A stretch of 63,634 nt of DNA, filler included, from Hausera hauseri (lineage: Eukaryota): NCBI GenBank assembly GCA_046269625.1. It is 12 parts of 12 records of this genome, joined end to end, with 100 filler letters (N's around TTAATTAATTAA, not from the genome) between each part and the next. Parts side by side here need not be neighbours in the genome. Positions count along the whole stretch, not along the records: positions 42,437 to 46,882 come from JBJURY010577672.1; 11 more parts are not named here. One strand, given 5' to 3'. A model generated the notes under the pieces. The model was not told where the DNA came from. It saw only the letters and a list, made by a program, of their open reading frames with translations, and searched no databases. The translations under genes were made by a program, and so were the position numbers. Every line of letters starts with the position of its first letter. Positions within the stretch are counted from its first letter, which is position 1. Positions 5,462 to 46,882 of the stretch are shown here, piece by piece.

Positions 5462-5561
5462 NNNNNNNNNNNNNNNNNNNNNNNNNNNNNNNNNNNNNNN
5501 NNNNNTTAATTAATTAANNNNNNNNNNNNNNNNNNNNNNNNNNNNNNNNNNNNNNNNNNNN
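5462..5561. other. Artificial contig-joining spacer (first of 11)
   Basis: Exact 100-bp N44-TTAATTAATTAA-N44 (stops in six frames). Repeats at 12327, 16836, 21399, 26445, 35420, 42337, 46883, 51042, 55121 and 59420. Confidence 0.99.
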
Positions 5562-9067: not shown

Positions 9068-11069
9068 ATGATGATAGAACCAAATTGGTGTCAGAAATAC
9101 AACAGTAATGTGGATACTCAACGAGCATTGTCAATCTTTTATAGTTTACGAAACGAATTACAGAAAACATATGACACGCAGAAATTGAAGCCAATCAATC
9201 AGATTGCAGCTATTTTTGAAATTTCTTCCTTTTCGAAAATTGTTGGTATCCATAAATTAATCAACGATTTACAACAGCACAAAAATTTGAAACTGGATGA
9301 TATTCAAGTTAATGAACATTGTACTATAACTATTTCAAAAAAAGTGTCGATTCAAATGACAATTCACTTTCTTTAGAAACAATTTCACCCCATCAAACTC
9401 TTGTTTTTTCCGTAAAATGCACTGGAATTTTTGTTGAAAATATTTCAAATGATTCACGCTTTAAAGCATTTGAAGACAAGTTCGATCATTTACGTGACCT
9501 GAACATGAGTATTAAAACCGTACCATTTTGGATTGACTTAATAATGGGAAATAACGTTTTATTAATAGTTTTTCATTTTGCCAAAAAACTGGATGTAGCC
9601 ATTAAACATATTGATATTTCAGTATCTGTTGCACAACTAATAATGAGTCTGAAATATGCGTATACTGCTGCAATTGTTGATGGTTTGTTATTGTCAACTT
9701 ATGAAAATCGATTCATATGGAAATTATTATCTTCCTTGCCACAGTCGCATGCATTTTTGGTAATTTCGTTGATACATACTCTTCTAATATTGATATTTTT
9801 AGCAAATTACATCGGTGATTGTTTCTGTACTGATTTTACCTGTTTCTACTCTAATACAATATCTATTATATCAATGATTCTGGCATATTTATTTGCCAGG
9901 GGTGAAGGATTAAAACATGTTTAATACATTATTTACCAATATATTTCACATTTACATCTGAGTTTTATTTGTATGCATCTACCGCATTTTTTGGTTTTCT
10001 TAATTTTTACTTGTTTCCGAAAGCTCTGAATGAACGTCAATCGAGATTTGGTATTTCACCAAAGTTTGTTTACTTTTAGTTTTTCCGATGACTTTAAATA
10101 CCTCCTGATTATTGTTATGTGTCAATATTTAACAACAATACCAAGTTTTGTTGTCAGCAACGACAGACCAATTGATTTTAGTTACGTTGTCAGCAATGCA
10201 TACTGGACTTGTACATCAAGTTTTGCCCTTTTTACGCATTCACCATATGAAAAAATTAAATTACATCCAGATGATCACGTATGTCATGATAAAGGCTGTA
10301 AAAAATTCCAGTTAAGCAGCTGTATGAATTACATCCACATCAGTATTCATACGAATCAATTTGAAAAAACTGGCCAAATTTACTTCTTATTTTCATTGAT
10401 CCCTGTAGAAATTCTGATTTTGATTCTAATAACGTAAAATTGAATTGTGCCACTGCCGTTATGACAGTATTTTTTCATACTCCCAGATATTCTGAGGAAG
10501 AATATCAATATAAAAACTTGCGAAGGCCTAACCGATTACTTTTTGAATCAGTTACCAGTGACTTTTTTCGCCAGAAACTTTCGAGAAAAGTACCTTTTAA
10601 TCCTCATTATTGTTTTGAAAGTTCATAGTGGCGATTCACCGTTGGGGCACTCAAATCCTACCTCTCATTGCTCGACCAGTTCCGACGAAATAACACAAGG
10701 TAATTATGACAGTTTTTCATACACTCAATCATTTAAATTATGGGACGAATATAGACTAATCCGCTTAGTTAGTCTGTCTTCCTCAATCAATTTTTTAAAC
10801 TGGTTGCCCAACGTTTATGCTTCATATTTTGGCAAACCAGCTTTACGTATTGTACTATCATCTGATAATATTGAATTTCGCGAAATTGACTTTAAACGGG
10901 TGAAACCGACTGCCACCTTAATCTAAATGGTCACATTGCATCGGTTTTTCAACTGTCCATCTCTCAAAAATCATGTTTCATAGCCAGTGGCTGCAGCAAC
11001 GGTTGGATTAATGTTTGGCACATCAAAAATAGCTGCCTGTTAATCCATCGTTCAAATTTAGACAAAAAT
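9068..11069 (+). pseudogene. WDR81: Degenerate, internally reduced BEACH/WD40 protein, WDR81-like
   Basis: LKLDDIQVNEH resembles the WDR81 N-terminal region; PFWIDLIMG matches BEACH WIDLxFG; WD40 segments SFKLWD..LSSDNIEFREID and LNGHIASVFQLSISQKSCFIASGCSNGWINVWHI (10923-11025). Frameshifts present. Confidence 0.55.
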
Positions 11070-11270
11070 ATGACAACTGTATCAATTGGTGAACTCAATT
11101 TGCGACCCACCATTTCAAAACCAAAATCACGATTCGCAATCAGTGAATGTTTGAAGTTGTCACCGCTTACAATGTATCGAAGTACTGGTCTGCCTACGAC
11201 GATGATCACTCATACAAGGGATTCTCTGGTTGAGGGCCCGGGCGTGCCCGCCCCCGTTGCGCCATGTCCC

Positions 11271-12326
11271 CTTTCTTTTCTCATCTTTACTAATACTAAA
11301 CATGTCCACACATTAAGGGTTACACATAGACAAACAGCTCATATTCTTTATACTGAATTGTCCTCTTATTTCGGCTCCTCTGGTTTTTATCTTATGCACA
11401 ACGGTCTAACTTTGCAACCTTACAACTCTTTCATCCTTTGCACCCGAGAAATACTCCATCACTCTCACTGTCCATTTTCGCATCCGTGGTGGATCAAACC
11501 TTGACCCTTCTACCGAACACTTAACAAAAACTAGATCTGGTCGTCATCCTGTCGACACCACACCAATAACTTCTCCAAATCTCCCCTGCACGGATCTTTT
11601 TCTAAACAAGACAAACTCTAGTCGTACCTGGCTGCAGTTCCATTTGCAATGGCTTAAAGCTAATCATATTACAGATCCCTTTCTGCGGGCTAACAGTTTT
11701 CTGCTATGGCTCCCAGCCAATTTGGCTGACATACTCTCCTCTTCAAGCCCGTATGATATGCTGTACGGATCGGTTCTACATATCACCTTCCCTTCCATCG
11801 ACAGCATAATCCAGAAGTACTTTAACGAACACGCCATTGGAAATTAAAAACTATCGGATTTCCTTAAAACGACCATCTCACAACTGAGCTTTTTAGGCGT
11901 GACTCCGACGAACAATGCTGATCTTCTTTGTCGGTACTTTCTCTCATCTCTGCCAACCTCCATCCGAGCGCTGCTTACTGCAGTAGATAACTCTACTGCC
12001 CTCGAAAAGCTCTCCTTATTGGCAGACAAAAGCTTTGATATTCTGCAGTCCAATAACTCGCAGCCTGTAGCCGCAGCAACTACTCATACACTGCCAGACA
12101 ACACTTTATTTGCACAACAACTAAACATGATGCAGAAACAATTCAATACCCTCCAACAAGCCATTTCTGCAATCACAGCCCAACTTAGTGACTTATCCGT
12201 GCCTCGAGGAAGTGAAAATCGTATTTCTCGCAATCGCAGTCTTTCCAGGCACTCTTCTCGTTCTAAATCTAGAGATGGTAGAATGACGTGCTTTTATCAC
12301 AACAAATTCCGCAAAGATGCAAGGAA
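11271..12326 (+). mobile_element. Ubiquitin-like domain-Gag fusion (copy 1)
   Basis: LIFTNTKHVHTLRV..FYLMHNGLTL, one frameshift, then TLTVHFRIRGG ending 11493. Continues in frame with Gag (SSRTWLQFHLQWLKAN, LLCRYFLSSLP, LEKLSLLADK) and the start of a CHCC knuckle (CFYHNKF). Confidence 0.85.
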
Positions 12327-18790: not shown

Positions 18791-19010
18791 AATAGGGGAG
18801 AAATGGGGATTCTAACCCACTCCCGGGGGTGTGCGCGTCGATAAATCGATAGTGCTAATCGATAATGCACACTGTGCACTATCGATCTATAGTGTGCAAG
18901 GCGACGGTGCCGCTAGGTACCGTTGCTAAGCACATTTTTGCACATTTGACAAATCGATCGCTGTATAGTGGAGCATTTATCGAATCTATTGGGACAAAGT
19001 GCTAAACTCG
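18788..19010 (+). repeat. Polinton-associated terminal/ATCGAT-rich repeat, homologous to 50119-50320
   Basis: Shares CTAAGCACATTTTTGCACATTTGACAAATCGATCGCTG and flanks with the contig-9 copy. Confidence 0.75.
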
Positions 19011-19019
19011 TACGGGATC

Positions 19020-21398
19020 AAAAACATGCAGCAAATTGAATTTGGCTATATAATGATTTGAAGCACAACCATGACTTCCAATGTGTCACATTTCCTCCAT
19101 CCTTAGATGAAATTAAGAAGTTCAGCCAAATTAACAACATATCCATCAACATCATTGTATTGGATGAGGAGGACAAATTCTATCCCCTGCAGATATATGA
19201 CACTGAATTGGAAGATCATAGGGATCTGCTCCTACTAGACGATGGATAAAAGAAACATTATGCTTGGATCAAGAATTTTGAGCGTCTAGTCAGATCCCAA
19301 ATTACGAAACATAAGGAAAGTATAGAAATATGTAAGCGCTACCTGTTTCATTTCAGTGGCGATACAGCAGTGGTCAAGCTTGCAGAGCACAAAATGTACC
19401 TCAACAACAATTACTGTGTAAGACTAGAATTTCCCAAGGAGGACTATATTGAATTCACATAGTTCGAGAAGAAGATCAAGGTCCCAATAATTATCTATTG
19501 CGACTTTGAAGCAATTCTCCGGCCAATTCACAGCTGCACTCGCAGTCCTCAACATAGCAGCACAACGGCATACCAATATCACGAACTCTCATCGTATTGC
19601 ATATATGCCAAAGGACTGGACAGTGAACAATTTCTATTCAGAGGTCCAGGTGCAGCAGCACATTTCATGAAACGACTTGAAGATATGGCTCATAAGCTTG
19701 AAAACATGCTTCAGCAGCATAAGGATACAATGACTGTCGTGAAAACAAGCTGAAGAATGGCACAGGGCAACAACATGTTACATGTGCTCCAAATCATTCA
19801 CCAAGGAAAATCATAAAATCAAGGATCATTGCCATTTTACAGGCACATATCGAGGAGCAGCATGCAGCAACTGAAACTTACGCTCCAAAACATGCACATA
19901 TGTGCCCGTAGTGTTTTACAACCTTAGTGGTTATGATTCCCACTTCATTGTTCAGGAACTGGACAACATTGAAGGAAACATTGATGTCATTCCAAATAGT
20001 GAGGAAAATTACATTACTTTCACGAAGCATGTGGGATGCATTAGACTTCGATTTATAGACAGCATCCGCTTCATGAACTCGTCACTGGATAGTTTAGTGA
20101 AGAACATTCCTGAAGAAGAACTTAAGGAGACGAAGCGGTTCGTCCCCACTAACTTTGACCTAGTCAATTAAAAAGGAGTGTGGCCCTAAGACTACATAAC
20201 ATCATGGGAAACATTGAATGAGACATAATTACCACCCAAGGATGGCTTTTATAGACAGCTATCGGACTATCATATCAGTAATGAGGAGTACCAGCATGCT
20301 CAGAATATCTGACAGGCATTTCAATGCCGGACAATAGGGAATACAGCGACATATACCTCAAGACGGACGTGCTGCTGCTCACAGATGTCTTTCAGAGCTT
20401 CAGGGATTTAACAATAAAGAGCTATGCTTTGGATCCGACTCATTTCTTTACGGCTCCAGAGATGAGTTGGGCAGCAATGCTGAGATATACCGGCATAAGG
20501 CTGCAGATCATTTAGGATTATGATATGATGCTTATGATCGACAGAGACATTAGAGGCGGAATATGCCAGGCCATTCACCAGTATAGCGAGGCCAACAACA
20601 AGTATATGGCCCAGTATGACTCATCCAAGGAATCCTCATATATATCACACCTGGATGCCAGCAACTTTATGGATATGCAATGAGCGCCCCATTGCCGTAT
20701 GATAACTTCAAATGAGTCAAGAATCCTGAAGACATCCCTATATTGAACCCGGATTCCGCTGGAGATCCGGGCTACATACTGGAGGTGGATATGGAATATC
20801 CTGCTTCCATCCACGCAAGGCATCAACAGCTGCCTTTTCTCCATGAGAGCAGGCCTCCGCTCCATGCAAAGCATAGAAAGCTGCTCTGTCATCTGGGTAA
20901 TAGGGAGAGGTATGTAGTCCATTACATGAATCTCCAGCAAGCTGTTAGACATTGACTTATTATTACCAAGATCCATAGAGCCCTGCAGTTCAGCTAGTCC
21001 ATGTGGCTGCAGTCATACATAGATCTTAATGCGAAGCTGCGAACAAATGCCAAGAACAACTTTGAGAAAAACCAGTTCAAGCTTTACCACAACTCGGTCT
21101 TTGGCAAGATGATGGAAAATATCCGCAATAAGATCAACATTGAGCTAGTATGTGACTGGAAGCGAGCAAAGAAGCTTATTGGCAAGCCTAACTTCCACAG
21201 CAGCACCATATATACTGAGAACTTGGTAGGCATCCATATGCTGAAAACAGCGTTGGTATTCAACAAGCCCATATATGTGGGTATGGAAATCCTCAACCTG
21301 TCAAAGACCCTAATGTGCAGATTCCATTACGATATAATGGTCCCCAAGTTCAAGTCCATGCAGCTGATGTATATGGATACTGATAGTTTCATCTATCA
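19020..21398 (+). pseudogene. Protein-primed family B DNA polymerase of a Polinton/Maverick
   Basis: HYAWIKNFERL, IYCDFEAIL (ExoI), KDHCHFTGTYRGAAC, YNLSGYDSHFI (ExoII), YLKTDVLLLTDVF, IRGG, LDASN, KLYHNSVFGK, YMDTDS. Many stops. Confidence 0.93.
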
Positions 21399-24620: not shown

Positions 24621-25789
24621 AATAGTATCGGCGCCATCAAAATTTTAATTTGGCGCTCAGAATCGTTAGGCCGGCGTGTTCTTCCATCTTGGTTTTGATT
24701 TCGTAATTCTTGCTCGTGTAACAGTCGGAAGTCACTCCCTGAGAATCAATTAAACTGAGAATTTATGCTCTAGTTCGCCAACTTTAAAATCCGATTTTGA
24801 TGCCGTAAAATTTTCGATTACAATGCTAGAAGCTCCTAATCATAATTATAAATGAATTTACTTTGCTGCTGAAAATTTACAAAGAAATATGTTCATGTTT
24901 CCAAAAAATCATGGAAAATACTGTGAGTAGTAAGATGGTAACAAAAGTGATAAGATGTTCATTAATGAAACTTAAATTCAGGAACCACCTAGGTCTCAAC
25001 ATCATGGTGTTTCAATGAATACAGTTAGACAATCTGTGCTTGGGGACATCGCATTCTGGAATCTGGCTTTGTGTACGTGGATGGATTAGGTTTTTTCTCA
25101 CTGATACCTCATTGATTTAATTTTTTTAATTCCAACCGTAATTCTCATACGGTTTTACTTGATATGTTAACTTTTACATGGTTCAAGCATAAATGAACTG
25201 TATTATTTACGTAATATTTTATATTGACTATGCACTTTATGGCAAAATGTTCAACAATTTTCATAATAGTAAGTGGATGTTTTAATATAGTCAACCTGGT
25301 TGTTTATTGTTAATTATACACCGTGTATGCATGTGTCCGATAGATTGTAAATATCTTTCAAAGACTTCATTCTATGGTCTGTAGAAATTTTAATATAATT
25401 CCTTCTTAGTCTTAAAAAATAATTGGTATGTTTAATTACATTTGCACAGTCATTTTATCCGACATAGTTGTGTTTAAAAAATTTATTGTGAATTACACAA
25501 TTTGTTTAAATTTATTGATGTAAAAAAAACGTTGTAAAACTATGGAATGAAACGGTTTCTGGAATACATAGAAGTTATCGATCTGTTTCATTAAAACAAA
25601 ATCTTTGGCTAAATCTCGTTTGTTCTGAATTTCTTAAGTTTAAAATGGCACGATTAATGTCGGGTTTACTGCCGAAGAAACTAAGATATTTCCACTTGGT
25701 GTCGGATATCTTGATCTACCTAGATCAAGTCCGACATCCACAAACGTTGGTTTCTTGCGAGATAATATTTTTTATTATTATTTTAAAGT

Positions 25790-26203
25790 AGTGACAATGA
25801 AATGTCTTATGGGACTACACGCACGGATGTATGTGAACATCATTGCCTCATCTGTTTCGTATATTGGGGAAAAATGAAACAATCCTGTCCGGTGTGCAGA
25901 AACGAGAATAAAAGGTGTCAGTTTTCAATAGCAACGGAAAATTCTTATCAATTTTCCTCATACCGGAATTGAAAAAACATTGGCGATAACACATGCACAT
26001 TATGCATGAATGAATCGAATTCATTTGCCGTGCGCCTGGTTAGATGTTATGAATTTCACCATACCTGTGTAAACTGCATTGTTGATTTGGGACAGAATGA
26101 ATGCCCGAAATTCAGCTCAGCCAGTGACAATATTTTGATACATAATGCTGACCGAAAATCAGTCTCAGTTTCCAAAATTCGCAACTTGAAGAAAACGGGA
26201 TAG
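25790..26203 (+). pseudogene. Two tandem RING-finger domains (E3 ligase-like), degenerate
   Basis: DVCEHHCLICFVYWGKMKQSCPVCR (~25827-25900) and TCTLCMNE..RCYEFHHTCVNCIV..ECPKF (~25991-26115). Confidence 0.65.
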
Positions 26204-26544: not shown

Positions 26545-26890
26545 CGTTTGGTTAGTAAGAAACGCATTTAACTTTTCATGATCATTTTTCCATGCAAAAT
26601 AATGCACAGGATACGACTTTTCTATTTCTGGTTCTCGCATGAATGCCATGGCGGCAATGTTTACATTCGTACACTTTGCCGGACTTTTTGGTTGGTCTTG
26701 ATTGCCTGGTGATGAGGAACTAACAGACGGACTGCTATTTGCAACAGTGATTGGAAGACGTCCTTTGTCATTATTGGAAGCATATGAATTGTGAAAATCG
26801 AAATTGATAGCGTTAATTGAGTAATCGGTAATGACTGTCGAGAATGAAACTTTATTCAGGAGATGGTTTTCGCTTTTGAATTGATGACAT
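26545..26890 (-). CDS. Ankyrin-repeat protein N-terminus (ANKRD13-like), truncated by contig end
   Basis: Frame open for more than 110 codons, ending MAFMREPEIEKSYPVHYFAWKNDHEKLNAFL, resembling the ANKRD13 P-L-H-x3-W-x-N start. Confidence 0.45.
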
Positions 26891-26932
26891 ACTAAAAATG
26901 GGAATCTGATTGACAGAATAGAGTATAATAAA

Positions 26933-27081
26933 TGTTCGGACCTTCAGCTATTAGAATTTTCTTTATTTCGGCAAAGAGTAGGAATATCGGAGCCCGCCTA
27001 TGTGTCCGACGCGCCGGCAGCAGACGCCCGGCCGTGCCCAACCGAATAGGCCAGAGGGCGACGGTCGACGCGGGCACCACA
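26933..27081 (-). repeat. Candidate 3' LTR (~150 bp, TG...CA)
   Basis: Starts TGTGGTGCC directly after the PPT, as in copy A; AATAAA at 26962-26967; ends CCGAACA. No second copy in the contig. Confidence 0.5.
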
Positions 27082-30000
27082 TCACCCCCGTGGCAAAGTT
27101 AAAACTATGAAGAGTAAAAGGATAGAAAGAAAAAATCGTAAAACGAAAAGTGTTTGTGTCAGTTGAGCTTAGTGTGAATTAGACGTTGAATACCTTTGGC
27201 TTATTTTTCCGTGCTATACTTGCTGAATGTGACTCTGCGTGTTGTGTGTTTATGCGATGTGTTTATTTGCAGAGATTGAGGTTGGGGAAAAATTGGTAGA
27301 TTTTGGTGTAAATTGTGTCGTGCGAAGATGAGTCGGAATAAAGAGAAGTAGGTGATGAAAGAGGAAGAGTGATTGTTGAAGGCGGATAGTTAAAGGTGTT
27401 GAAAAGAGTGTTAGCAGACGAAGGAGTGATGACAGGTGTAGTGGAGGATAAAGGAAGAGAGAAAGAAGTTGGAGTAGAGATTGGAATTGTGCTGAGTGAA
27501 AGAGTAGACAAGGAAGATGATACAGACTGAGTGGTAGGAATAGAGGTAGAAAATGTAAGAAATGATGGAGCAAGAAAAGGCGTAGAAGAGGAATATGGAA
27601 ATGATGTAGCAATAGATATTGGGATAGCAGGGAGTGACGGAATGAGAAAAGATGTTGGCGTGTCGGTTGGTAAGGTGTCGTTTTTAAATAAAGCGGGCAT
27701 TAAATTGGTAACGTGTACTGTAAGGTCTTTGCCGACTTTAGAGATAATGGCGTTATGTGAGTGCAGCTGTATCAGTTTATAGGGCCCCAGGTACCGTGGT
27801 TGAAAACCGCAAGGAGCTTGATTCTTCAGCCATACGAATTTAGCCATGTACAAATCTTCGGGTAAGTATGTTTTGTCTTTGTGGAGTATCCTGCAGAACG
27901 AATTTTTACTGACCTCGACGAAGTGATTTTGCGCCACCAATATCGCCTCATCTGTGGGAGTGTCGTCTAGGGAGGTTAGTTCCAATAATGATCGTACAGG
28001 AGCTCCGAATAAAGCTTCAGTAGGTGAGCATCCTGTAGAAGTGGAGGGAGTGTTCCGCCAGCCAAGCAGAACAAACGGAAGAAGATTCATCCAACTAGTG
28101 TTGGACTCTGCCAGAATTCTTAGTGACATTTTCAATGTTCGGTGGAAACGTTCTAGAAGGCCATTCGATTGGGGGTGATAAGACGTAATATGCATGTGAT
28201 GAATCCCCAATCGGATAACAAGGGATTTGAACAGGTTGGATTCAAACTGTGAACTCTGGTCCGTGACGATGAAGCTAGGTGATCCAAACCTGCTAATCCA
28301 TGTACGAATGAAAACGTTAGCTATATTGTCGGTATCTGTGCTCTGCAGAGGGATGGCTTCTGGCCATAGCGAGGAACGGTCCATCATGGTGAGGATAAAT
28401 TGATGTCCGTTGTCTGGAGGAAGAGGGCTAACGATGTTGATATGAACGGACTCAAAACGCGATGTGCAGGGAAAGTGGAATAGTGGTGGTTTTAAATGCT
28501 TAGTTGTTTTGTATTTTTGGCAAGCCACACACTCCTTAACCCATACCTGCACATCGGAACGCATTGACGGCCAAAATACTTGTCGGTGGAGTAAACGAAA
28601 AGTGGCTTTAGCATCGGGGTGGTGTAGCGAATGTATATTGTGAAATGCTTGATTTTTTCAACGATGGTGCAAGAATTATTACGGAATGACCTGGTTTGGA
28701 AGTGTCTAAAGCCACGCCGTCAACAATTGTACAAGACATGAAAGAATTAAGCATGGCCTGAGGTGGCTGGTTCTGTTGAAGCTGAGGTTGCGTAAAAATC
28801 GGCGAAAAATTAATCGAACTAACCGACCTAGATAAAAAGTCGGCATCCAAATTATTAACCCCGTTAATATGTTTTATGTCGAAGTTAAATGTCGACAAGT
28901 ATGATATTTGTCGTTCTTGGCATGTGGAAGGATGTTTCATAGCCATGATGTTAAGTAAGGGTTTGTGATCGGTTTGTATAGTAAAATGACGAGCGACAAG
29001 TAGGTGGGAGAAATACTTTAGAGCAAGGACAATGGCCAACAACTCTCGATCGAACGTTGAATATCTAGTTTAAGGGGATGTTAGTTTGCGAGAGAAAAAT
29101 TCTAGCGGTTGATTTTCTTCGTGGATTTGGTGAAGCACAGCACCTACTTCAGTGGTTTAAGCGTCTGTAGTAAGAATGGGTTGCGCGTCAGGCTTGGGGA
29201 AAGCGAGAATGTCGACGGTCTTAATTCCTTCGCGTAGCTTATCAAACTTATCAACCTATTCAGGTGTTCACTGAATTGGCTGATGTTTTCACCACCGCTT
29301 AAGTGTGCAAATGGTGCTGTCAATTCAGAGCAATATGATACATTTTTACGAACAAAGTGTAATGTGCAAAGGAAACTGCGCACTTCGGTGGTCGTACGTG
29401 GTAACTGGATAATTTTAAAGGCTTCAACTCGGTCTGGTTGGGGAGAGTGGCCGTGCAGTGAAATAACGTGGCCAAAAAAGTTTATGCGTTTTTTGAAGAA
29501 ATGGCTTTTGTCAAAACTGACTTGGAGATTATGGTGGTGAAGGCGTTGGAATATTGCGCGAAGGTTTTCCTTAAGTTGTTTGGCCGAAGAGGAAGCGATC
29601 AGAATATTATCAATGTAATGGTGCGCAAACGGAAAATCTGAGAGAATTGAGTCGATATGTCGCTGGAAAGTCTGGGTGGCATTTCGCAAACCGAATGGCA
29701 TAAACAGGTACTCGTAGAGGCCAAAAGGAGTGGTGACGGCAGTCTTTTCTATGTCTTCGGGTGCGAATGGTATTTGGTGATATGCTTTGACCAATCAATG
29801 GTCGAAGAAATTGCGGTTGAATTAAGGCGATGCAAGATATCCTTGATGAGTGGCAGGGGGTACGCATCCATAATTGTCAAGTTGTTCAACTATCGGTAAT
29901 CACCGCATGGTCTAAAGGTACCCTCCTTTTTTGATCAACGTGTAAAGGTGAAGACCAAGGAGATTTGGAACGGCGTACAATGCCGGATCGTTTTAGTTCA

Positions 30001-32215
30001 AGAAATTCGGCTTCGACGGCCTGCCTACGACAAGGTGATAGTGGTCGTACCTTTTTGTGTATTGGCCGTTTAGGCTGTGTAATTATGTGATGTACAGTGC
30101 TGTTTGCAGGAGTAAACGTACGATCTTTTTTGAGTGCTCGTGAACATGATTTGTTAACGAATTGCTGTAAAGTTGTAGGCAACTGTGAGAGATTCGGTGA
30201 TGGTGATGAAACAGCTTGAGTAATAGCAGCTGCAATTTGTGAATTGTTTGGTGATGTGCAGTCAAGTGGTATTTGGTGCAATAAGGTCGAATTGAAAATG
30301 GTGTTGGATGCAGTTATTTCGTCAAGTGAATTAACGTTGGTGACAGTACCACAATTAACGACATCGAACCTCGACTGAATGTCAGTACTATGATTGAAAA
30401 ATTTTCGAAATAAAACATTGTTATGGAAATTCGAATTAGTTTTTGATTTTCTCAAAACTGATATCCGCGTGTCGATCGACTGCGCGGCAGCCGAAATGCT
30501 ATTTATATGCTCAGTAACGCTGCCAGTTATACAGCTCCTGAGACATCGTTGACTGCAGTCAATCAATAAATTATAATGTGATAGGAAATCGGACCCTAGT
30601 ATTGCCGTTTGGACGTTAGCAACTGTGAATGTCCAGTGGAAAGGTGAAGGAAATTTTGGTAAGATAAAAGATAGTTTAGTCATGCCAGAAATGTGCAGCA
30701 TTTGACCTGAAGCGGTGTATAAGGATTTAATTCTGAATGGTGAATTTTGTACAGGAAAGATTGTGGCAATAAGGAAATCGCTGCACCTGCATCAATGAGG
30801 AAATAAACGGATTGCGTTGTAGGAGCGGTGATTGCAGCCTTTAGAGTAAAGATGGCAAAAGAGGCGTGTAGGCATTCAGAAGGTGTAGTAGTGCCTTTGC
30901 CAGAGTTTGCCGTGACTTCTAGCTGAAAATTTAGTTTTGTTGAAAGGATGAACTAAGACGACTATTAGAAGAATAGGTGGCACGTCCTTTGCTCGTATCT
31001 GTTTTGAAAGTGCAGCCTAAAATGCATTTACGAGCTTGTTTTTAAACTTTGCATGGTAGATGCAAACAACGGTGTCTGAGAAAAAACCTTTATTATAAAA
31101 TTTGCATCCTAGGCAGCATTTTTGGCACTTTTGTTGAATCTGCTGTGTATTATAGCAGATTGACGACTGCGCAGGCGATGGCGGCCGGTTTCTAGATGCA
31201 GAATAGGCGACGTCAGAGACAAAATCCATTCGACGGGACAGGAAAAGTTCATTTAATTTGTTGTTAATGTTGTTAATTGTTGCGTGTAGTGCTGTATTTT
31301 GGCACGTAACTGATTTAGCTGTTGCTCTATTCATATGTTGTTGCTTTGAATACCATTAGCAGCAACTGCCACCGAAAGGATTGGTGGGTAGTTTAAGTGT
31401 AGAACGTCGTGTGTCTTGTCGGCTAATTTGGCCAGTTTCAAACGAGCGGTAAGTAGAGCCAGAATTTGGATGGGTAACGCGTTGAGGAAGTAGTGGCGCA
31501 GTAGTTCTGGGTTGTGTTCTTTAGTGACGCCGAAAGTGTGTATATGTGGCGAAGAAGTGCGTAGAAGGTTTGACAGTCGTTGTGTGCCTATAGCATTGTC
31601 GTGAAAGAAGCGTTGTATGATCGTATCCATTGAGGGTTCTGTGATTTCAAGAACAGCGTTGAAGAGTTGTGAATATGGATCAGGGAGTTCGAAGATTTCA
31701 ATAATGTTGTGAATTCATGTTTTGATATTGTTAGGTAGTAAGACGAGGAGGTTATGTGCTTTAGCTAAGGAATCGGTAACATTATTGGCTTGTAGTCACA
31801 GTTGGTGGAATTGCAACCAAGTTTTGCTGGAGCCTTGGTTGTCGATAAAGAATTCAGTGCAGTGAGGGAAAGGAGCGGAAGAGGTGGTAGGCGAAGGGTT
31901 ATTAGCAGAAGTAGAAGTGGGTTTTTGAAGCAGTATAACAGATTTTGGTTTCGTGGTGGTTTTATCCGTGGTGCCTATGGTTGGCGACGAATTCGTGCCA
32001 CCACGGATGCGGAAGTGTATATGGAGGTGGATATAAGTTGAAGTAAATTGTAGGGTTTCAGGGATAGGTACTGTAGAGCCATTGTATGTGATGTAAAATT
32101 CAGATGAACGAAGAATAGTGCACATGGCGTTGTAGAAATCTGTAGTGTTTACGTGTGTTGGTGCAATAGTGTAAATATGTTTGTTATTTAAAAAAGGAAG
32201 AGCGAAAACAATGTG
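26933..32215 (-). mobile_element. Near full-length CsRn1-like Gypsy (copy C): Ubl-Gag (2x CHCC)-PR-RT-RH-IN-PPT-short LTR
   Basis: Ubl ending HFRIRGG at 31997; Gag 31996-30990; protease FLIDAGA ~30790; RT (SKSPWSSPLH, MPFGLRNATQTFQR, YIDN); RH; integrase ORF 27263-28564; PPT GGGGG at 27085-27089. Confidence 0.93.
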
Positions 32216-32376
32216 GATGTATAGCCAGGTGCGTGTCGCAGGGCGCCAGCGAACGATGCCGTCCGACTTAATGGCATAGGCTGAGCGGCCGGGACTTCAG
32301 CTTAGCCGTAGCGGATCCCAAACTTCTGTGTGACCGTGTTCCGTGCATGCAATGTTTCTTCATCAGTATTTTTATT

Positions 32377-34050
32377 TTACACATATTTTGCAATATTGCC
32401 CATATTAGAACCATTTCTCAGATTATCCAGAATTGGTTCTTTAAATGAGACTGAATCGGCCCTTTTACATTCACAGTGAATGTAAGAATATCTCTTATAT
32501 TTCACGTAATATTCCTCAGTCTCGGTCTCCTTATTTTCTGTAGGATAGGGTAAATCAGATTCACTAACAACAAGAGTGCCAAGGATTTTGGGAATAATTT
32601 TTCTACCGCTATTCAGATTGGGGCGGAAATCGAATCGAGATTTTTATTACTGCTGCTTGATGACGAATCATCCATTAACTCCGCGTCTGCGTTAATATCT
32701 TTTACACGTTTTTTAACCTTATTTTTTCGGGGTCTTGTTTCGAATGTTTTGGCATCAAATAGGGATTGGTCAGCAGTCGATGGATGTGCAGTATGCTGGA
32801 TAAAATATTTAATTTCATATTTACAAATTGGACAATATGGCATTGTATTTGCTTGGGATCGAGCTCGATCTACACAATATAGACATAGCATGCGTAGGCA
32901 AGGCGTAAGTCTGTACACTACATTGAGAATTACTCGGCATTCCATACATTCTGAGAGATCTGAAAATAAGTAGAATTAATTGAGATTTAATTCAATTGTA
33001 TTAAGATCTATACAATTATTATTGTCTTCAATATACGGTGAGGTCGACAGATAGTTATACAGTCTAAGTAGGTGAGCTTGTACTAATTGTGAAGTACACG
33101 TAGGAATGATAGTGGTATATAGTAATTGCTCACTTAAACGAATTATGAGTATGGGGTTTGTCGAGAAGTTTGCAGCAATAGGTTGACGGCTAAGATTGAA
33201 GAAGCCATTGGTATTACTAATAGGCAGCTTATAGAGCATAAGAGTAGATCTAGTTGTGTTGTTTTAATGAATCTATACTTTAGTATATCTTGTATGAGGG
33301 GTAAGAAGTCTTCATTTTCGATTTTATTTAGGGTACGTTTGTCGGTTATGCATGTAAAGGGTGTTCTCCAGTCGATGACTTTATGCCTGGGGTACATTTG
33401 TTTCTGTAATAAAATTTCACCTTTATAGTCTAGTATAGCGATATCAATGATGGTTTGCTTAATAGTTGTAGGATTAGATTGAGTTGTGACGTAATTATAG
33501 GATACGAAGATGAATAGGAGTTCTAAATCTGATAAAGATAACCCTTCTGGTGCTGAAATGTACTCATTTACTGGTAAAAGTGGCTTGGGTGTATGTACTG
33601 ATTGGATATAGTCTTCATTGTGGGTGTATATACGTTTTGGATGAATTACTTCCACAGCGTATATACAGTTGGTTAGAGAAGAAATGGTAAAAGATAATAA
33701 TTCCACAGGAGGAATAATGATAATCACGCTAGAGTTATCAAGTAGGTCGTGATTAATATCAAAAATTGGATCATTATAGTTAATACTGATAGTCAGCTTG
33801 CCACTGGTGAGATGAATAGCAATGATATCGACCTTTCATGGTCGGTCGATAAGGACCAATTGGAATAATTAATTGTTTACGTCGGTTAACGTTTGTTGAA
33901 TACACATTTGTCTGGGATAGAGTTGGAGTTTCTCAGACTTTAGGTTATTCGGAATAGCTGTTTGATTAGGGAAAATGCGATACAATTGATTTACCCTCAA
34001 GTAAGACGCCAGTGCTTCATAAAAAGTTTGTGATTCAATATAGGACTCCA
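32377..34050 (-). pseudogene. Multidomain accessory ORF: unknown N-domain, catalytically dead DEDDh exonuclease (REX4/ISG20-like), RING finger, CHD-type chromodomain
   Basis: ORFs 33869-34147 and 33143-33727 share one frame; 32976-33239 and 32613-32945 share the next. Motifs IDIAILDYKGEILLQKQMYPRHKVIDWRTPFTCIT; CMEC..PCLRMLCLYC..CPIC; IIPKILG..EEYYVKYKRYSYIHCE (32467-32598). Confidence 0.7.
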
Positions 34051-34298
34051 TTTTCAGCTTTAATACGAAACATAATGATAAAAGTTTATTTACATGAATT
34101 GAATGTAAATTACACAAAACAATAGCATGCACTACTATATTAAGCATGAATTATATACAATGGTCATAAGATACAGAATGTCAATAGTTATTTGAGATAG
34201 GGAATGTCAGTGACAAGATAACAATAATATACAGAATTAAATAGTCATATCAGAATATATACACACGTATAGAAAGTTAATAAAATGTCTAAAAATGT

Positions 34299-35419
34299 TT
34301 ACACCACGATTTCTCGGCGCACAGTAGCTAATAGGCGTTCATGTTCGAAGGAGCTGATCAATAAGTCACGTATCAGAATGTCACTGATTGTTAGGTTTCG
34401 ATAATTGTGAGTCTCTGGATGAATATCTGGTCGTCGCATCAGGATGGAAACTGATCCATAGGTTCGAGTCAAAAGCACAGTTATAAGGGGAGTCTTCTCA
34501 CATGAACCATGAGCATAGGTTACGTCAAATCGGTAAGTTCCGTTATCGAATTTCTTATTTAGGAAGGTTTCCAATAGGAGAAATTGTTTGAATACTTTTG
34601 CGTGATGTAATGGTGTACTACGTAATTGTGGTTGGAAAATGGCTTGAAATACTTTGTTATCGTAGGCATAATCGAATATCTGTATTGCAAGGTTATGTCG
34701 ACCATGGCGTATAACGAGTAATAAGGGAATATCCCCATCTACGTTAGGTATGTGTAAAGGTGCTTTTGTTTAAATGAGCATGAGTATAAAAAAAATCATG
34801 ATATTCACTCATAATGGCTAAATGAATGATGGTATTGCCATTTGAATCTTGGAATTTTAGCGTTTCCTCTGCTTCATCGCCTAATTGAGTTATAGCTTCT
34901 TTAGCTCTTTCTTCGCTTCTTGATGCTACTGCTAGCATTAATGGAGTTGTTTCAGCGGTATTTACTGTTGTATAGTCTATTGGGTCAGCTGGTAATTGTT
35001 GCTATAATAAGTATGACGCTGATTGGTACTACTATGACGATTAGCATAAATAAATTATAATTTATTTGAAATTGTGGTATTGTTTGAACTGACAGTGATA
35101 TGATACTCAGCGTTTCATTGCCTTTGGGAGAATTGGTAGATATTTTAATCATAAATTTTCCTTTTTTCATTATTTTATTGAGTGTTGGTAATTTAAATTG
35201 AATTTACTCCCCTTTTGGGCGTAGTGACTTCTAATAACGCGATCGTTTTTGGTTTTTGTAATAGGTCATAATAAGGTAACTGAATATTGGCTAAATAAGG
35301 ATAACCAGATATCAATTTTGTGCATTCAACGTACGTACTGGTAACTAGACAACAGCCGTCGTTAGTATTTTTCAATATAACGATAAAGTCAGGATTTGGC
35401 AAGCTAAACATTACAAGGT
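34299..35419 (-). pseudogene. Receptor-like protein: FN3-like ectodomain, TM helix, ankyrin repeats
   Basis: TM LFMLIVIVVPISVILIIATI; ankyrin ETTPLMLAV, NGNTIIHLAI, DGDIPLLLVI, KTPLITVL. The FN3-like motif CTKLISGYPYLANI is weak. Confidence 0.55.
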
Positions 35420-40292: not shown

Positions 40293-41798
40293 AGGGTCAG
40301 GGGGAGAAAAAAAAAACAGCCGGTGGAAATCTGTGCGCTCGGATTACTAAACCGTGCGCACAGATTACAAAACTGTGCGAACAGATTACTAAACCGTGCA
40401 CACAGATTACTAAACCGTGCGAACAGATTACTAAACCGTGCGCACAGATTACTAAACCGTGCGCACGGATTACTAAACCGTGCGCACGGATTACTAAACT
40501 GTGCGCTCAGATTATTAAACCGTGCGCACAGATTGTTGACATCTGGAGAAGTTAGATGGTAACCATGGGTGTTTGTGGGAACTGTGTTGTTCATCAGCTC
40601 AGAAGTGCGTAATGGAGCGGTTTTTGTTCACTGAAGTCAAAATACAGCACAAAAAGGGTTTGAATTTGAGTATGTTCTACAGTTTTTGCCCCTCTGTCAG
40701 ACAGTTTTGGAACAGGGTCCCCTCCGATCGGATCATCACAGGAAGCCGCTCCGAGCCTTTCGGAGTCCGTGGTAACCGGACTCCGGACTTTGTTTCCCGG
40801 CAACGAGGAAGTTTTGCTAATGTTATCAATTTGTCTTCTCAGGCTTATATCACAAAATGACTGAATAACTTCATTTGGAACTTTTAGGAAATGTTTATTA
40901 CTCTTTCAAAAATGTTTATTGCACCACAGAGAACAGTTGAATAAAGTTTGAAACATTTCAGAGAACAAGGCTCCTGTTATTCTGCAGACGAAGCGCCACA
41001 CGGGGACATTTCTCAGCAGCATGCCGCTCGGAGGTGTTCTCCAGCGGTTCTCAGATGTTTATTCTATTTCATAAACAACAGATGGGGGGACGGGAGGGCG
41101 GAGGAGGCTAACATCGGTTGCAGGAATCATTTGCCTGTAAAATATGAAATGAAATAAATCACCACCTCAGATTTTGATAAAACTTTCAGGGAAATTCTGT
41201 GGCCAATAACATCAATTTAATGGACTGGCAAGGGAAAAATGATCAAGTAAATGATCGACATTTTAAAAGTTTTATATCAGTGTAACAGCCTAAATATAGT
41301 CATATGGTCATATTGTATAGTGTGCTGATGAAAGCAGTGCTTTAAGTTTCTATATGACAACAGATCCACTGAATTTACCTTGCTGGTGCGCGCGCCGCAC
41401 CATGATCCAACCTCTCGACAGATCAAAGCAATCTGCGCTCCTGGATTGCTGCAACTGAGAGCACGGTTTAGTAATCTGTCCGCACGGTTTAGTAATCTGT
41501 GCGCACGGTTTAGTAATCTGTGCGCATGGTTTAGTAATCTGTTTGCACAGTTTAGTAATCTGTGCGCACGGTTTAGTAATCTGTGCGCACAGTTTAGTAA
41601 TCTGTGCACACGGTTTAGTAATCTGTGCGCACAGTTTAGTAATCTGTCCGCACGGTTTAGTAATCTGTGCGCACGGTTTAGTAATCTGTGCGCATGGTTT
41701 AGTAATTCATGCACACGGGTTTTAGAAACTGAGGGCACGGTTTATTAATCCGTTTGCACAGATGTCAACGGGCTGATTTTTTTTTCACCCGCTGACTC
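40293..41798. mobile_element. Non-autonomous foldback-type DNA transposon; long TIRs built of 21-bp tandem repeats
   Basis: (CCGTGCGCACAGATTACTAAA)n at ~40330-40535 and inverted at ~41460-41760; outer ends AGGGTCAGGGGGAGAAAA and, on the reverse complement, AGAGTCAGCGGGTGAAAA. Confidence 0.85.
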
Positions 41799-42336: not shown

Positions 42337-42789
42337 NNNNNNNNNNNNNNNNNNNNNNNNNNNNNNNNNNNNNNNNNNNNTTAATTAATTAANNNNNNNN
42401 NNNNNNNNNNNNNNNNNNNNNNNNNNNNNNNNNNNNCGTTTATTTACGGTGCTATATTCTCCCGCTGAAGCATTAAGCAAACACACAGAAGTCTGTGTCT
42501 TTCATCATCTGAGCGAAACTATTCTCTCCTTGTTGCAATTAGCTTGTTTTCAAACGGAAAAGAAAAGCAAGATCAAGCAGGAGACCCAACAGACGAGCTG
42601 TGCATGGCGTGCAGCAATTATGCTCAACTTTCAAGAATAGTCTGTGTATCATTTATGCTATCACAACAAAGAGAAACATTTTTACTTTCAATCTTCTCAA
42701 ACCACTCTTGCATATTTATAATGCCATCTCCCACGTCTTACATTTGGCTTCTTTTTTATCTCGCCCTAAAACATGAATATTCAAAGCAG

Positions 42790-42990
42790 CTGGAGAAAAA
42801 GTCCAAAAAAATCACTAACAGAACATCATTTACAAACGATCAAATTTTATTACTTGAAAAAGAATTCGAAAGAACTCACTATCCTGATGTATTTTATCAA
42901 TAAAAATTATCTCCAAAGCTAAAAGTTATAGAAACACGAATCCAAGTTTGGTTTTCGAACTGGAGAGCAAAATGGGGAAGAGAAGAAACA
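42790..42990 (+). pseudogene. Pax6: Pax6-type homeobox, intronless, with premature stop
   Basis: [56 protein letters not shown]; Ser50; stop at 42901-42903. Confidence 0.85.
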
Positions 42991-43197
42991 TCCGACGAAA
43001 ACACAACACCAAATGTCACTATCCGATCAGATCTCCTGATAATTATCGAACTGTGATCACTGATTCAAGAGTTGCATAATGAAAATATAAGAAAAGTTAA
43101 TAACAATTTCGTCTCCAATTGTTTTCTGGCGGCTTTATGCGTTTCTTGGAGGCACTGGATTTATGTTGTTGGAAGGTGTAGAATTTGATGAATTAGA

Positions 43198-44400
43198 TCA
43201 GTTAAAGAATGTGCAACCTGTAACGCAGTTCTGTGCTTTAGAATTGAATTTATTTTGGTAAATTCAGATAATATAGGATCTTTTGAAATGGGGAGCATAA
43301 AATCTGCAACCTAAGCAGCATATAGTCGAGTTGTTTTTGAATTTGGTGTGGTAGTAACACACCAATGATCGTGTAGGTGACCTTGCATGCCTTGAATTTT
43401 GAGACAAAGTGCTGCTATGGTTCTCATCAAAACGATTTCGTCTAGGCATGGTCAAAGCTTCGATTTTTGACGTGGGTGCAGAAATTGCTTGATATATGTT
43501 GGCGTTTTTGGAACGTAAAGAATTAGCTATATCGCTAGCTTGTTGAGTTGTTGGTGCTTGTAACATAGCGGCTACTAATGGGGCCGTATGTGCATGTAAT
43601 ATCTGTGGCTTTTGTCAGCCAATTGTGCTAGTTTTTGTAGTGATCATGTGCACTCTACTATGGTTAGCAGCGCACGTATGTCTCTGGGTAAAGACAGCAG
43701 AAAATATCTGCGTAGTAAATCGGCGTTGTTTGCTTGATTAACGCCTAGAGTACTCAATTGAGTTAATGAGGTCTAAAGAAATTCTGAGGGTTTCAATGTG
43801 CCTATGGTGTTGTCATTAAAATATTTGTGGATAATGTTATCCAGAGATGGTTCCGTGATTTTCAAAATTGAGCTAAAAAGTGTTTCATATGGGTCACTGC
43901 TTTGGAAAATTTCCGATAAGTTGGGAAGCTGCGACTTAATGTTGGAAGGCAGAAGTATAAGCAAGCTGTTTGCTTTAAGAAACGAGTCGACAATATTATT
44001 TGATTTCAACCAAGCCGCATGAAAGTCCAACCACGTCCGGCTAGAGTGTTCCTTGTAGACGAAGTATTCTACTCAAGGTAGATTTACAGTAGACGACGGA
44101 GGTAGAGGTGAATTTAACGGTACACTTTTAGTAGGAATATCGGCAAAGTCCTGTTGGTCGTTAGATGAGGCTTTTGGATCAGATTCACCTGGCAGACGGT
44201 AGTGTACGGTGAGTATAGGTGTTGAAGATGAGTGGGTGTAACTTGTTAGTGTCGGATTGTCGGAGAAAACTTCCATTATAACTAAGGCGGAAATTAGCGA
44301 GGGTTGTTTGTCGTTGTAACACATCAGACACTGTTGCAATTGTTGTTGATTTGTGTATGTAGTAGGTCTGTGTATGCTTGTTTCGAATAAAAAGACAAGT
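43198..44400 (-). mobile_element. Ubiquitin-like domain-Gag fusion (copy D), pol absent
   Basis: CLFIRNKHTQTYYIHKSTTIATV..FRLSYNGSFL, frameshift, then ILTVHYRLPGE (GGT GAA at 44184-44189); Gag SSRTWLDFHAAWLKSN; two CHCC knuckles. Confidence 0.85.
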
Positions 44401-44798
44401 GGGACAAAATTGCCACATAAGTGGGTGTGCAGTGTGGTGCATAAGACAGCGGCGCGCCCAAAATCCCTGCGATGTAACAGTCGATTTGCGCGACCTGAGT
44501 GGTAAACACTAGAAAAGGCGTCCTGTTTGGTTGATGTTTGACGTCTGTTTCCTGTAAACTTTGTAAATGTCTTTCCATAAATTCCTTCTGCATCGACTCA
44601 GCCAGCATGTCTCCAACCGACGATGTAGTACTGGGATGTTTACCACTGGCATTAAGGTAATTCTGGAGAAATTGTGAACTGTTCTCAAAATAAAAGGCAA
44701 TCAATTCTTCGGATAAAATTATGTTAATAATTTAGTAGATTCATTAACATATGTATAAGAAATATGAAAAATTCACTGACCTTTTTTATGTATACCTT

Positions 44799-45560
44799 TT
44801 AATCATCTGAGACTCCAATGATAGACTCCGATAACGGTTGACATAATAATGCATGGTAATTGATGAAATCAGAAAAATCATCCCACAATAAGAACGTTGT
44901 ACTGACGGCGCTTTTATAGACTATTTGAATAAGTTTTTGTAGGTGGAGATTATCGAGATACGGATGTAGAAATGAGAATAGATCACAAAGTAATTGCTTG
45001 TAGAACTCCTGTGTGTATTCCATTGTTATATTATAGAGCATTTTGGAAATGAACTATCGATGGGAAATGAGTTCTAATCATGAGAATACGAATGATGGAG
45101 CACATTTTAGTCTGATGACATTACAGTTATTTGAAAATGCAGTCAGAGCATGATATTGGAACTCTACCATTTGTTCTTCATCATCAAGATGCTGTCTATG
45201 ACATTTATAAATGAGACTACATACTAACATTGCATAAACATCAATTTCCAGATATCCGGCACTACGATTTACTATGAGTAATGATTTCAATTGTTTATGT
45301 GCTCGATCAAGAACGTACATTGATACTAATCGTAGGAATCTCACAAAGACCTCATCATTATGGGTAAGTTGATGTTGCGTCATAGTGTTGACAACATTTT
45401 GTACGGCAACATTTCGTTGATTACTTGAGAAATTACTCTCCATTCATAGACGCAACATAATTTCGGCCTCCTCTGCCATTGATGGTGGCTCATCAAATCC
45501 CCGTGACGAACTAATTCCATTGTACAAATAAATTGATGACGGCGATCTCTTCGGACAACG
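44799..45560 (-). pseudogene. CNOT1: CCR4-NOT subunit 1 C-terminal domain fragment with internal deletion
   Basis: Three same-frame ORFs: FDEPPSMAEEAEIMLRL*, DEVFVRFLRL, ALTAFSN..CAPSFVFS*LELISHR*FISKML, YKQLLCDLFSFLHPYL..DFSDFINYH. These match CNOT1 DPPGLREKAEYLLREW, APGFVYAWLELISHR and QLLIDLFKYLAPFL. Confidence 0.85.
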
Positions 45561-45600
45561 ATTACATAAATGCGTTGGAGCATTTATTCGACAAAGCATA

Positions 45601-46882
45601 CTCCAGAGTATTTTTAATAAGATGCTCAAGAGCCTCGTGATTTCTGTGATTAAAATGTGCCAACATCTCATTAACTGCTCCTGAAACAGTGTCGCATTTC
45701 CTTTATTTTCTTTTTAGAATGACTACCGTGGTTTCCTGCGTGAAGTTTTGAATGTTGTGAAGAGTTTGTTTAATAGGGAGAGCATTAGGAGTTTCTGTCT
45801 TTTCCTCAGCTTCCTCAAATGCATCGTCAGGATTCATGATTTCATCCTCTTCGCCACACATATTTATTAGTTCATTCACGGATTTTTCGACATTATGTGA
45901 TTTTGTCTGGAGTATTTTTGCAGTCTTGATACACAGTTCCTGAGTGCGATCTACGAATTCATCAACTGCCACCGGGATATAATTGGGCAATTCTCATAAT
46001 TGCACATTACTAAGGTCTTCAAGAACCAAACCAATACGATACGTTCTGAGATCCCTGACGCGATCAAGGAGTAATTCCATTTTCGTCAGACCTGCATACA
46101 CAGAATTTGTGTATTCTTGTAATTTCGTGCTTGTCCAGTTATTCGTAGTAAGACCCGGCTTGATTATTCTTTTCAGTTTGTTCATCTTCAGTACCATAAG
46201 TGTTTCGTATTCGGGTGGAATGCTATTGATCACATATTTGATATGGTCCACCATTAACGTCAATTTATTGTGAAAATCTTTTAATGCTGTCTGTTTAAGT
46301 TTCAGATTTATGGCTGCAGGGGAAATATCCATATTTAGTTTAATCATAAGATCTGTCTCTCTGGCCAGCGTTAAAATATCGGGATCAAATATGACAAAAA
46401 GTTATTTTGTCTCCGGATGACGCACGATCAAAGATGACTTAAGACCGGCATGAGTTGCATTTACTTGACGGACCCAAGCTTCATGGTATACAAGCTCAAA
46501 CGTCATTAATGTTTCCGCAAGTTTGTTGTAGTTCTTTACAATTAATCGACCTTCCGTGATTTGCAACATTGCTGAATGTTCTCGATTGAATAATTTCATT
46601 GGTTCTTCAATACATCTAAACAAATGTCGTACCCATGCAATTTTGCCGGCGATTGGTGGATCATCTTTCTGTCGTGTATAATGTTTCATTAACGAATCAA
46701 GGTCACGTTTGTAATGGTTCATTATCTTCATATATTTATCTTCAATTCCCAGATCTGGTATATTTAGCTTTTCAAACCATCTCAACATCTGAAGAGCTCG
46801 TGTTGTGTTGTTTACCCGATCAAATATTCCATCCATAAACGCTATAATGCTATTATGAATGTCTTGAATCTGTCGAGTAAAA
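45601..46882 (-). pseudogene. DNAH5: Axonemal outer-arm dynein heavy chain (DNAH5/DNAH8-type) tail fragment
   Basis: Same-frame ORFs with 3 stops: FEKLNIPDLGIEDKY, PPIAGKIAWVRHLF, YNKLAETLMTFELVYHEAW, VRHPET, PGLTTNNWTS, LLDRVRDL, HFNHRNHEAL..NTLE. About 7 aa are deleted between two PP motifs. Confidence 0.88.

Follow-up and report, generated by a model that had tools for sequence, protein, structure and literature searches.

Host-like DNAH5 and CNOT1 fragments before a ubiquitin-like domain and Gag in a dead Gypsy-type element of Hausera hauseri

Gene capture by long terminal repeat (LTR) elements is a rare accident that mostly cripples the element. Here, we describe a locus of Hausera hauseri (assembly GCA_046269625.1) at which a fragment of a DNAH5-type dynein heavy chain gene is joined to a fragment of CNOT1, in front of a ubiquitin-like domain (Ubl) and the Gag of a Ty3/Gypsy element. 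The window, by which we mean the whole 63,634-nucleotide stretch of DNA analysed, consists of 12 contigs of 4–9 kb joined by N-linkers, and the locus lies on contig 8 (JBJURY010577672.1; positions 42437–46882). That LTR elements capture genes is already known; the part not found in the literature searched is a putative ubiquitin-insulated slot before Gag. The search returned no description of a ubiquitin–di-glycine (GG) fusion before a retrotransposon Gag, and subscription journals, Repbase entries, or supplements may hold one.

The closest described cases are the LTR-mediated retrocopies of animals, which are partial, two-gene, mostly sense pieces acquired by template switching (Tan et al. 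2016, PMC5131818). The contig 8 fragments resemble them in being partial host coding pieces that are cut at both ends, joined from two genes, free of poly(A), sense-oriented, and copied further. In those retrocopies, however, the cargo replaces internal open reading frames (ORFs) between LTR remnants, whereas on contig 8 it precedes a Ubl and a full-length Gag, in a layout that recurs across a clade. The contig 8 cargo is flanked downstream by Ubl-Gag, and upstream the contig ends inside DNAH5. With Ty3/Gypsy elements of the CsRn1 clade (PwRn1 and AgCR; PMC2582038), the contig 8 Gag shares the motif CX2HX9CX3C, and further likeness lies in the DUF7041 Gag of the database relatives and in the reverse transcriptase–RNase H–integrase order of pol on contigs 2 and 6. 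Unlike CsRn1-clade elements, the Ubl-bearing proteins have an N-terminal Ubl-GG and mostly two tandem CHCC motifs.

A parallel for the Ubl is found in cytopathic pestiviruses, where host-derived, often mosaic, Ubl-ended inserts stand immediately ahead of a protein that must begin at a defined N-terminus (PMC8310069, PMC13517609, PMC2850149) and cellular ubiquitin hydrolases free the authentic start of NS3 (PMC8310069). Those inserts are sporadic and belong to an RNA virus, whereas here a diverged Ubl is fixed in a retrotransposon clade and its cleavage is predicted; Ubl-GG directly before Gag is present at the family level, with the GG broken in the contig 8 copy. For mosaic pestivirus inserts, nonreplicative recombination is favoured over template switching (PMC13517609). 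The giant planarian elements Burro/GYPSM1 likewise encode host-like domains in a Gypsy polyprotein, among them RING, ankyrin, and a ubiquitin/SUMO-like domain, but in Burro a CCHC Gag comes first and a fixed domain set follows, while here the pieces vary and stand ahead of the Ubl and a CHCC Gag (PMC6431247). Bdelloid LTR elements with an extra ORF3 have also acquired accessory ORFs, DEDDy exonucleases among them; these are intact, family-specific, and common to retroelements, and not scraps of host genes before gag (PMC5408684).

The DNAH5-CNOT1 joint and its copies

On the minus strand of contig 8, the DNAH5 fragment is followed by the CNOT1 fragment, a linker of ~400 bp, the Ubl, and Gag (Table 1). 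Human DNAH5 residues 540 to 981 aligned to 46881–45595 (E 4.5e-95). The DNAH5 fragment extends past the end of the contig and contains stops at 46404, 45996, and 45705, an in-frame deletion of 7 codons, and a frame break at ~45600. CNOT1 homology at 45533–44817 corresponds to chain positions 271–350 and 440–564 of 4c0d_A (E 9e-27), with stops at 45446, 45080, and 45056 and an in-frame deletion of ~47 codons. Both fragments (1.3 kb and 0.75 kb) are colinear with their proteins, and neither contains an insertion of intron size.

Table 1. Features of contig 8 and the other Ubl-Gag copies of the window
Feature	Position	Strand	Basis
DNAH5-type dynein heavy chain fragment, tail, human 540 to ~990	45560..46882	-	protein alignment, Pfam DHC_N1
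CNOT1 fragment, start of C-terminal NOT-module region, Pfam Not1 6-130 of 372	44817..45559	-	4c0d_A alignment, Pfam
Linker between CNOT1 and Ubl	44413..44816	-	composition, open frame
Ubl, two frames, break ~44250	44184..44412	-	Pfam, relatives' profile
Ty3/Gypsy Gag with CHCC motif	43135..44183	-	profile, alignment, tree
Decayed, intron-free Pax6-type homeobox, antisense to gag, at expected pol start	42814..42990	+	best match Pax6, E 8e-22
Left 365 bases of contig 8, ~98% like run X2/X3 contigs	42437..42801		contig comparison
Contig 2 Ubl-Gag copy: WD40 piece, Ubl, RIRGG, Gag	10896..12326	+	frames, Pfam, profile
Contig 6 Ubl-Gag copy: weak RING and chromodomain pieces, Ubl ending RIRGG, Gag, pol	31000..33000	-	Pfam, profile
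Contig 10 Ubl-Gag copy, no recognisable cargo	53700..55050	+	profile, alignment

Three public runs (X1, X2, and X3), none recorded as RNA, contain part of contig 8. We placed the joint near 45560, with no spacer between DNAH5 and CNOT1, because three run X1 contigs depart from the window sequence at 45559. These loose ends also set the 5' edge of the CNOT1 fragment, and they indicate that other CNOT1-bearing copies have different upstream DNA. The segment 45600–45560 was put with DNAH5 on the strength of the run X1 contig ends and of its likeness to the residues that follow NTLE in a fish DNAH5 (P0001), while a shuffle test on the window alone left this assignment undecided. On the same two grounds, we rejected a reading of 'RINA' at 45590 as CNOT1.

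Two run X1 contigs span the joint, one with 0 differences over 173 nt and the other, ~92% alike, differing at 17 sites and by 4 gap letters across 214 nt, which argues that the joint is not a misassembly and that it has been copied. Near-identical run X1 contigs cover 44968–45301, 45354–45519, 45520–45692, and 45806–46276, and 46148–46730 is covered by a single contig layer. Run X1 is possibly not independent of the source of the window, which leaves the ~92% second copy of the joint unaffected. For copying we relied on contig counts rather than summed depth. Up to 10 variant contigs were found at one CNOT1 position and 9 at one linker position, and the six listed DNAH5 positions above 46300 had 1 variant contig each; there are thus many versions of the CNOT1-linker part and two or more of the DNAH5 join. 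Summed depth (~10–13 over DNAH5, 77–156 over CNOT1 and the linker, 2000–5500 over gag) is consistent with amplification and gives no copy number. Among the listed differences between the joint copies, second codon positions account for 6 of 8 in DNAH5 and third positions for 7 of 15 in CNOT1, and both copies are, by their sequence, decaying. Among the filtered run X1 records listed, none paired DNAH5 sequence with an intron-like joint or loose end, a result that is silent on the parent gene, and no DNAH5 parent contig running past the joint was found in run X1.

Frame breaks occur at five places between DNAH5 and the end of Gag (near 45600, 44720, 44420–44380, 44250, and 43604). At all five, other run X1 contigs have short indels relative to the window, as would follow if the contig 8 copy alone carried the breaks. 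The linker is AT-rich near 44800–44720 (GC 0.21–0.25) and then runs for 103 stop-free codons into the Ubl, a length reached in 23 of 2000 shuffles. It showed no CNOT1 likeness in a shuffle test and no family match, its frame had no match in Atlas or PDB, and a CNOT1 search at near length gave no match. A small intron at 44795–44707 was rejected, since the candidate ends, once joined, give no open frame. A profile built from the relatives detected the Ubl (independent E value, iE, 0.011), the terminal di-glycine of which is broken. Gag is full length, with 50% identity to P0155 and P0007, several stops, one intact copy of the CX2HX9CX3C motif, and a second, broken copy; pol is absent after it. 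The contig 8 element copy is dead, and nothing in it points to function. The left 365 bases of the contig have almost no counterpart in run X1, and the run X2/X3 contigs that match them switch to other DNA at 42801. The Pax6 and DNAH5 pieces mark the host as an animal, and some residues of the homeodomain look flatworm-like.

A preliminary description of the locus had called both fragments intron-free, stop-containing, internally deleted, and on the same strand as gag; the alignments bear out each of these points. Its boundaries needed revision. The DNAH5 homology, said to stop at NTLE (~45601), does run to 45595, but the fragment itself is now assigned as far as the joint near 45560; the CNOT1 homology, called C-terminal and said to start within ~100 bp, follows with no gap and represents the first third of the Not1 domain, not the C-terminus. 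The description also had CNOT1 abutting Ubl-Gag, where ~400 bp of non-CNOT1 sequence in fact intervenes, and misassembly, which it named as an outcome that would overturn it, is contradicted by the two run X1 contigs that span the joint, one of them diverged.

Ubl-Gag copies in the window and among database relatives

A profile search found four Ubl-Gag copies in the window, one per contig. In the best local protein alignments, the contig 8 copy was 42–48% identical to the others, and the leaders and post-pol regions of the window copies shared no DNA above shuffles; the copies therefore represent separate families rather than one element. The preliminary description had reported three Gag copies with three unrelated sense cargos: the pieces are indeed sense and differ, but the copies number four, come from separate families, and include one, on contig 10, without recognisable cargo. 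GG is present at the Ubl end on contigs 2, 6, and 10. A long open frame precedes the Ubl in two of the four copies; on contig 2, the WD40 piece and the start of the Ubl lie in one stop-free frame, with 124 open codons before the Ubl (19 of 2000 shuffles). The ankyrin, RING, and chromodomain matches upstream on contig 6 are all sense, all weak, and all under the Pfam cut-offs, and the chromodomain piece had no match in PDB.

We searched 1.84 billion representatives with the contig 2 Ubl-Gag and took the best 150 of 311 matches as its relatives. The closest, P0005, is a predicted protein of 996 amino acids (E 2e-85) on a 3554-nt contig; in order, it contains DIS3L (45–343), a CAF1-binding piece of CNOT1 that differs from the contig 8 piece, Ubl-GG, and Gag. 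P0005 and its cluster mate P0155 are each predicted as one protein, on two contigs. Of the 150 listed relatives, 27 received the Ubl-bearing label: 19 were picked out by eye, 7 more came from a profile run on the other 131, and Pfam added 1. At least 180 residues stand ahead of the Gag core in 17 of the 27 versus none of the 123 others, and a host domain precedes the core in 6 of 27 versus none of the 21 others scanned; the domains are DIS3L and CNOT1, histone H2A, 5'-nucleotidase, RING, cohesin SA, and HSP90. Two CHCC motifs are present in 21 of the 27, and one motif in 106 of the 123 others. Pfam ubiquitin was found in 8 of 36 scanned proteins, in two of them above the cut-off. Across 23 aligned relatives, the first glycine of the GG is invariant (23/23) and the second at least 90% conserved.

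A quick tree, rooted at the midpoint, was built from 141 Gag cores after removal of 12 short matches. In it, the three window Gags that were tested and P0005–P0007 formed a 6-row group with support of 100, and 27 of the 29 Ubl-labelled rows fell in one 36-row group with support of 98, the other two lying elsewhere. On this tree, ubiquitin-GG-Gag marks a putative Gag clade, often with long, unrelated N-terminal extensions. P0048 and P0096, which have Ubl-GG-Gag and a single CHCC motif, lie outside the main Ubl group; they possibly reflect a second origin of the Ubl tag. DNA scans for the close family in metagenome and viral contigs found none, and three JGI loci of the wider clade carry plain Gag.

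Several observations concern the surroundings of these copies and of pol on contig 5. On contig 2 (8159–11330, plus strand), the order is pol, a polypurine tract, TG, 3 kb of mixed coding-like DNA, the WD40 piece, and Ubl-Gag, possibly an element permuted through collapse of a long LTR; at 9086 stands what we take to be a tRNA-Leu-like primer motif. On contig 6 (minus strand), a sense N-terminal piece at 26546–27085, after pol and the polypurine tract, presumably resembles ANKRD13 (no Pfam match), and 33143–34950, upstream of Ubl-Gag, holds ankyrin-repeat pieces and another frame that we presume to be exonuclease-like (no Pfam match). Two sense RING-finger pieces lie at 25781–26200 (plus strand) on contig 5, ~1.2 kb past the end of pol. 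A Mariner-type transposase piece lies antisense to Ubl-Gag on contig 10 (51900–52450, minus strand).

Origin of the upstream fragments

Taken together, the sense orientation, the fusion in mid-gene, the second copy of the joint, the many CNOT1 versions, and the same layout in the relatives support the view, as judged from sequence, that the element family captured coding pieces from its host. An RNA route by template switching appears likely; an internal DNAH5 piece is joined to an internal CNOT1 piece, and no poly(A) tail is present in the sequence, which agrees with the multi-gene chimeras of PMC5131818. We hypothesize, with a probability of roughly 0.6, that contig 8 holds a dead Gypsy-type copy in which captured pieces of DNAH5 and CNOT1 mRNA stood before Ubl-Gag and once formed one deubiquitinase-cleavable protein with it. 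Host mRNAs would have been co-packaged with the element RNA and copied in by template switching at reverse transcription, CNOT1 probably first and DNAH5 later, because most CNOT1-bearing contigs depart from the window sequence at the joint. One reading frame would originally have led from the cargo through Gag, and host deubiquitinating enzymes would have cut after the di-glycine, freeing Gag with a fixed N-terminus. A captured piece upstream would then cost the element little and would drift until decayed. With Gag left unharmed by its cargo through cleavage, both the variety of the cargo and its decay would be explained. The preliminary description had proposed serial capture by a Pack-LTR; capture of host pieces is supported, while no LTR was found on contig 8. 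It overlooked what is likely to underlie the pattern, namely the di-glycine Ubl between cargo and Gag.

Several points weigh against this hypothesis. Repeat, alignment, and motif scans located no LTR on contig 8; an 8-base tRNA-Trp primer motif had no match in the window, in which no 5' LTR was located. The contig 8 Ubl scored E 0.023 against Pfam ubiquitin, below the curated cut-off. Before the Ubl, contigs 6 and 10 (two of the four copies) have no long open frame, and in the CNOT1 frame of contig 8 two stops at 44817–44720 are removed by none of the best 40 of 643 difference rows or 12 of 37 indel rows. No single run X1 contig spans the whole stretch from CNOT1 to Gag. Among the relatives, 19 of the 27 Ubl proteins were chosen by eye on their GG motif, with a query that was itself a Ubl-Gag, and all are gene predictions seen as protein, in which the predictor may have joined neighbouring exons. 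Finally, the antisense Pax6 homeobox and a 171-codon frame on contig 7 are intron-free too, which an intron-poor host would explain equally well.

This last point leads to an origin at the DNA level, in which duplicated and rearranged DNAH5 and CNOT1 pieces of an intron-poor host were joined by deletion or repair beside or inside a Gypsy element, with no RNA step. The intron-free state of these other host-like pieces fits such an origin, as do the antisense orientation of the Pax6 piece and the AT-rich stretch past CNOT1, which could be noncoding genomic DNA; the window holds no intact gene usable to gauge host intron density. Against it, the order of cargo, Ubl, and Gag recurs in separate families and in the database relatives, and the linker varies in as many contigs as CNOT1. 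Introns of the Pax6 homeobox are conserved in many animals (PMC2222250), so that the intron-free copy itself suggests an RNA step. We regard a DNA-level origin as unlikely, though it is the main rival. As regards a Pack-type DNA transposon (Pack-MULE or Helitron), the best 25 of 90 inverted repeats included no terminal inverted repeats or Helitron ends round the fragments, on a contig too short for this to be decisive and on which the adjacent gene is Gag. Processed pseudogenes of DNAH5 and CNOT1 made by L1-type activity, followed by a Gypsy insertion, would also yield intron-free, decayed coding pieces, but internal pieces cut at the 3' end, a mid-frame fusion, and the lack of a poly(A) tail make this scarcely credible. 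Equally hard to maintain is an assembly artefact between repeats; the contigs are short and repeat-rich and run X1 may share their source, but the diverged second copy with the same joint and the near-identical run X1 contigs tiling the region largely refute it for the DNAH5-CNOT1 joint.

A different question is whether the cargo was ever translated with Gag. It may have been a passenger in a long leader or long LTR, with the Ubl starting at its own AUG and serving to boost, tag, or turn over Gag. In 10 of the 27 Ubl-bearing proteins, the prediction places fewer than 180 residues ahead of the Gag core, stops persist between CNOT1 and the linker frame, and sense host-like pieces also occur downstream of pol, past the polypurine tract, on contigs 5 and 6, so that the capture site seems not to be fixed. 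We nevertheless consider a passenger role rather doubtful, given the open frames into the Ubl in two of the four window copies, the stop-free frame shared by the contig 2 WD40 piece and its Ubl, and the prediction of P0005 and P0155 as single proteins on two contigs. Fusion of captured mRNA pieces to Ubl-Gag in one cleavable protein remains our preferred reading.

Elsewhere in the window, the 171-codon frame on contig 7 (35689–36204, minus strand) encodes a small cysteine-rich membrane protein. A 923-codon stop-free frame at 14064–16835 (minus strand) has an internal repeat and no Pfam match, and frames at 17714–21398, also without a Pfam match, presumably resemble a Polinton capsid and a piece of a B-family polymerase. 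Two inverted arrays of a 21-nt unit, ~1 kb apart at 40310–41769, resemble the ends of foldback elements.

What a ubiquitin-shielded Gag may mean

The suggestion in the preliminary description that capture of CNOT1 could once have been adaptive finds no support at the contig 8 locus, where, as far as sequence can tell, both copies of the joint are decaying and CNOT1 was of no evident use to the element. The recurrence of CNOT1, together with DIS3L in P0005, amounts to two cases, which the length and abundance of the mRNA may explain. A bolder idea, which we consider improbable, is that the Ubl tag before Gag evolved repeatedly, with two possible Gypsy origins on the tree, and offers a free test slot in which helpful host fragments are kept. 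If so, fragments would be translated at Gag levels and released by host deubiquitinases, and CNOT1, represented by two different domains, and DIS3L would have been selected as decoys that counter mRNA decay and silencing. More generally, a Gag shielded by a Ubl would make capture cheap and continuous, and such elements would steadily supply material for exon shuffling and possibly antisilencing decoys.

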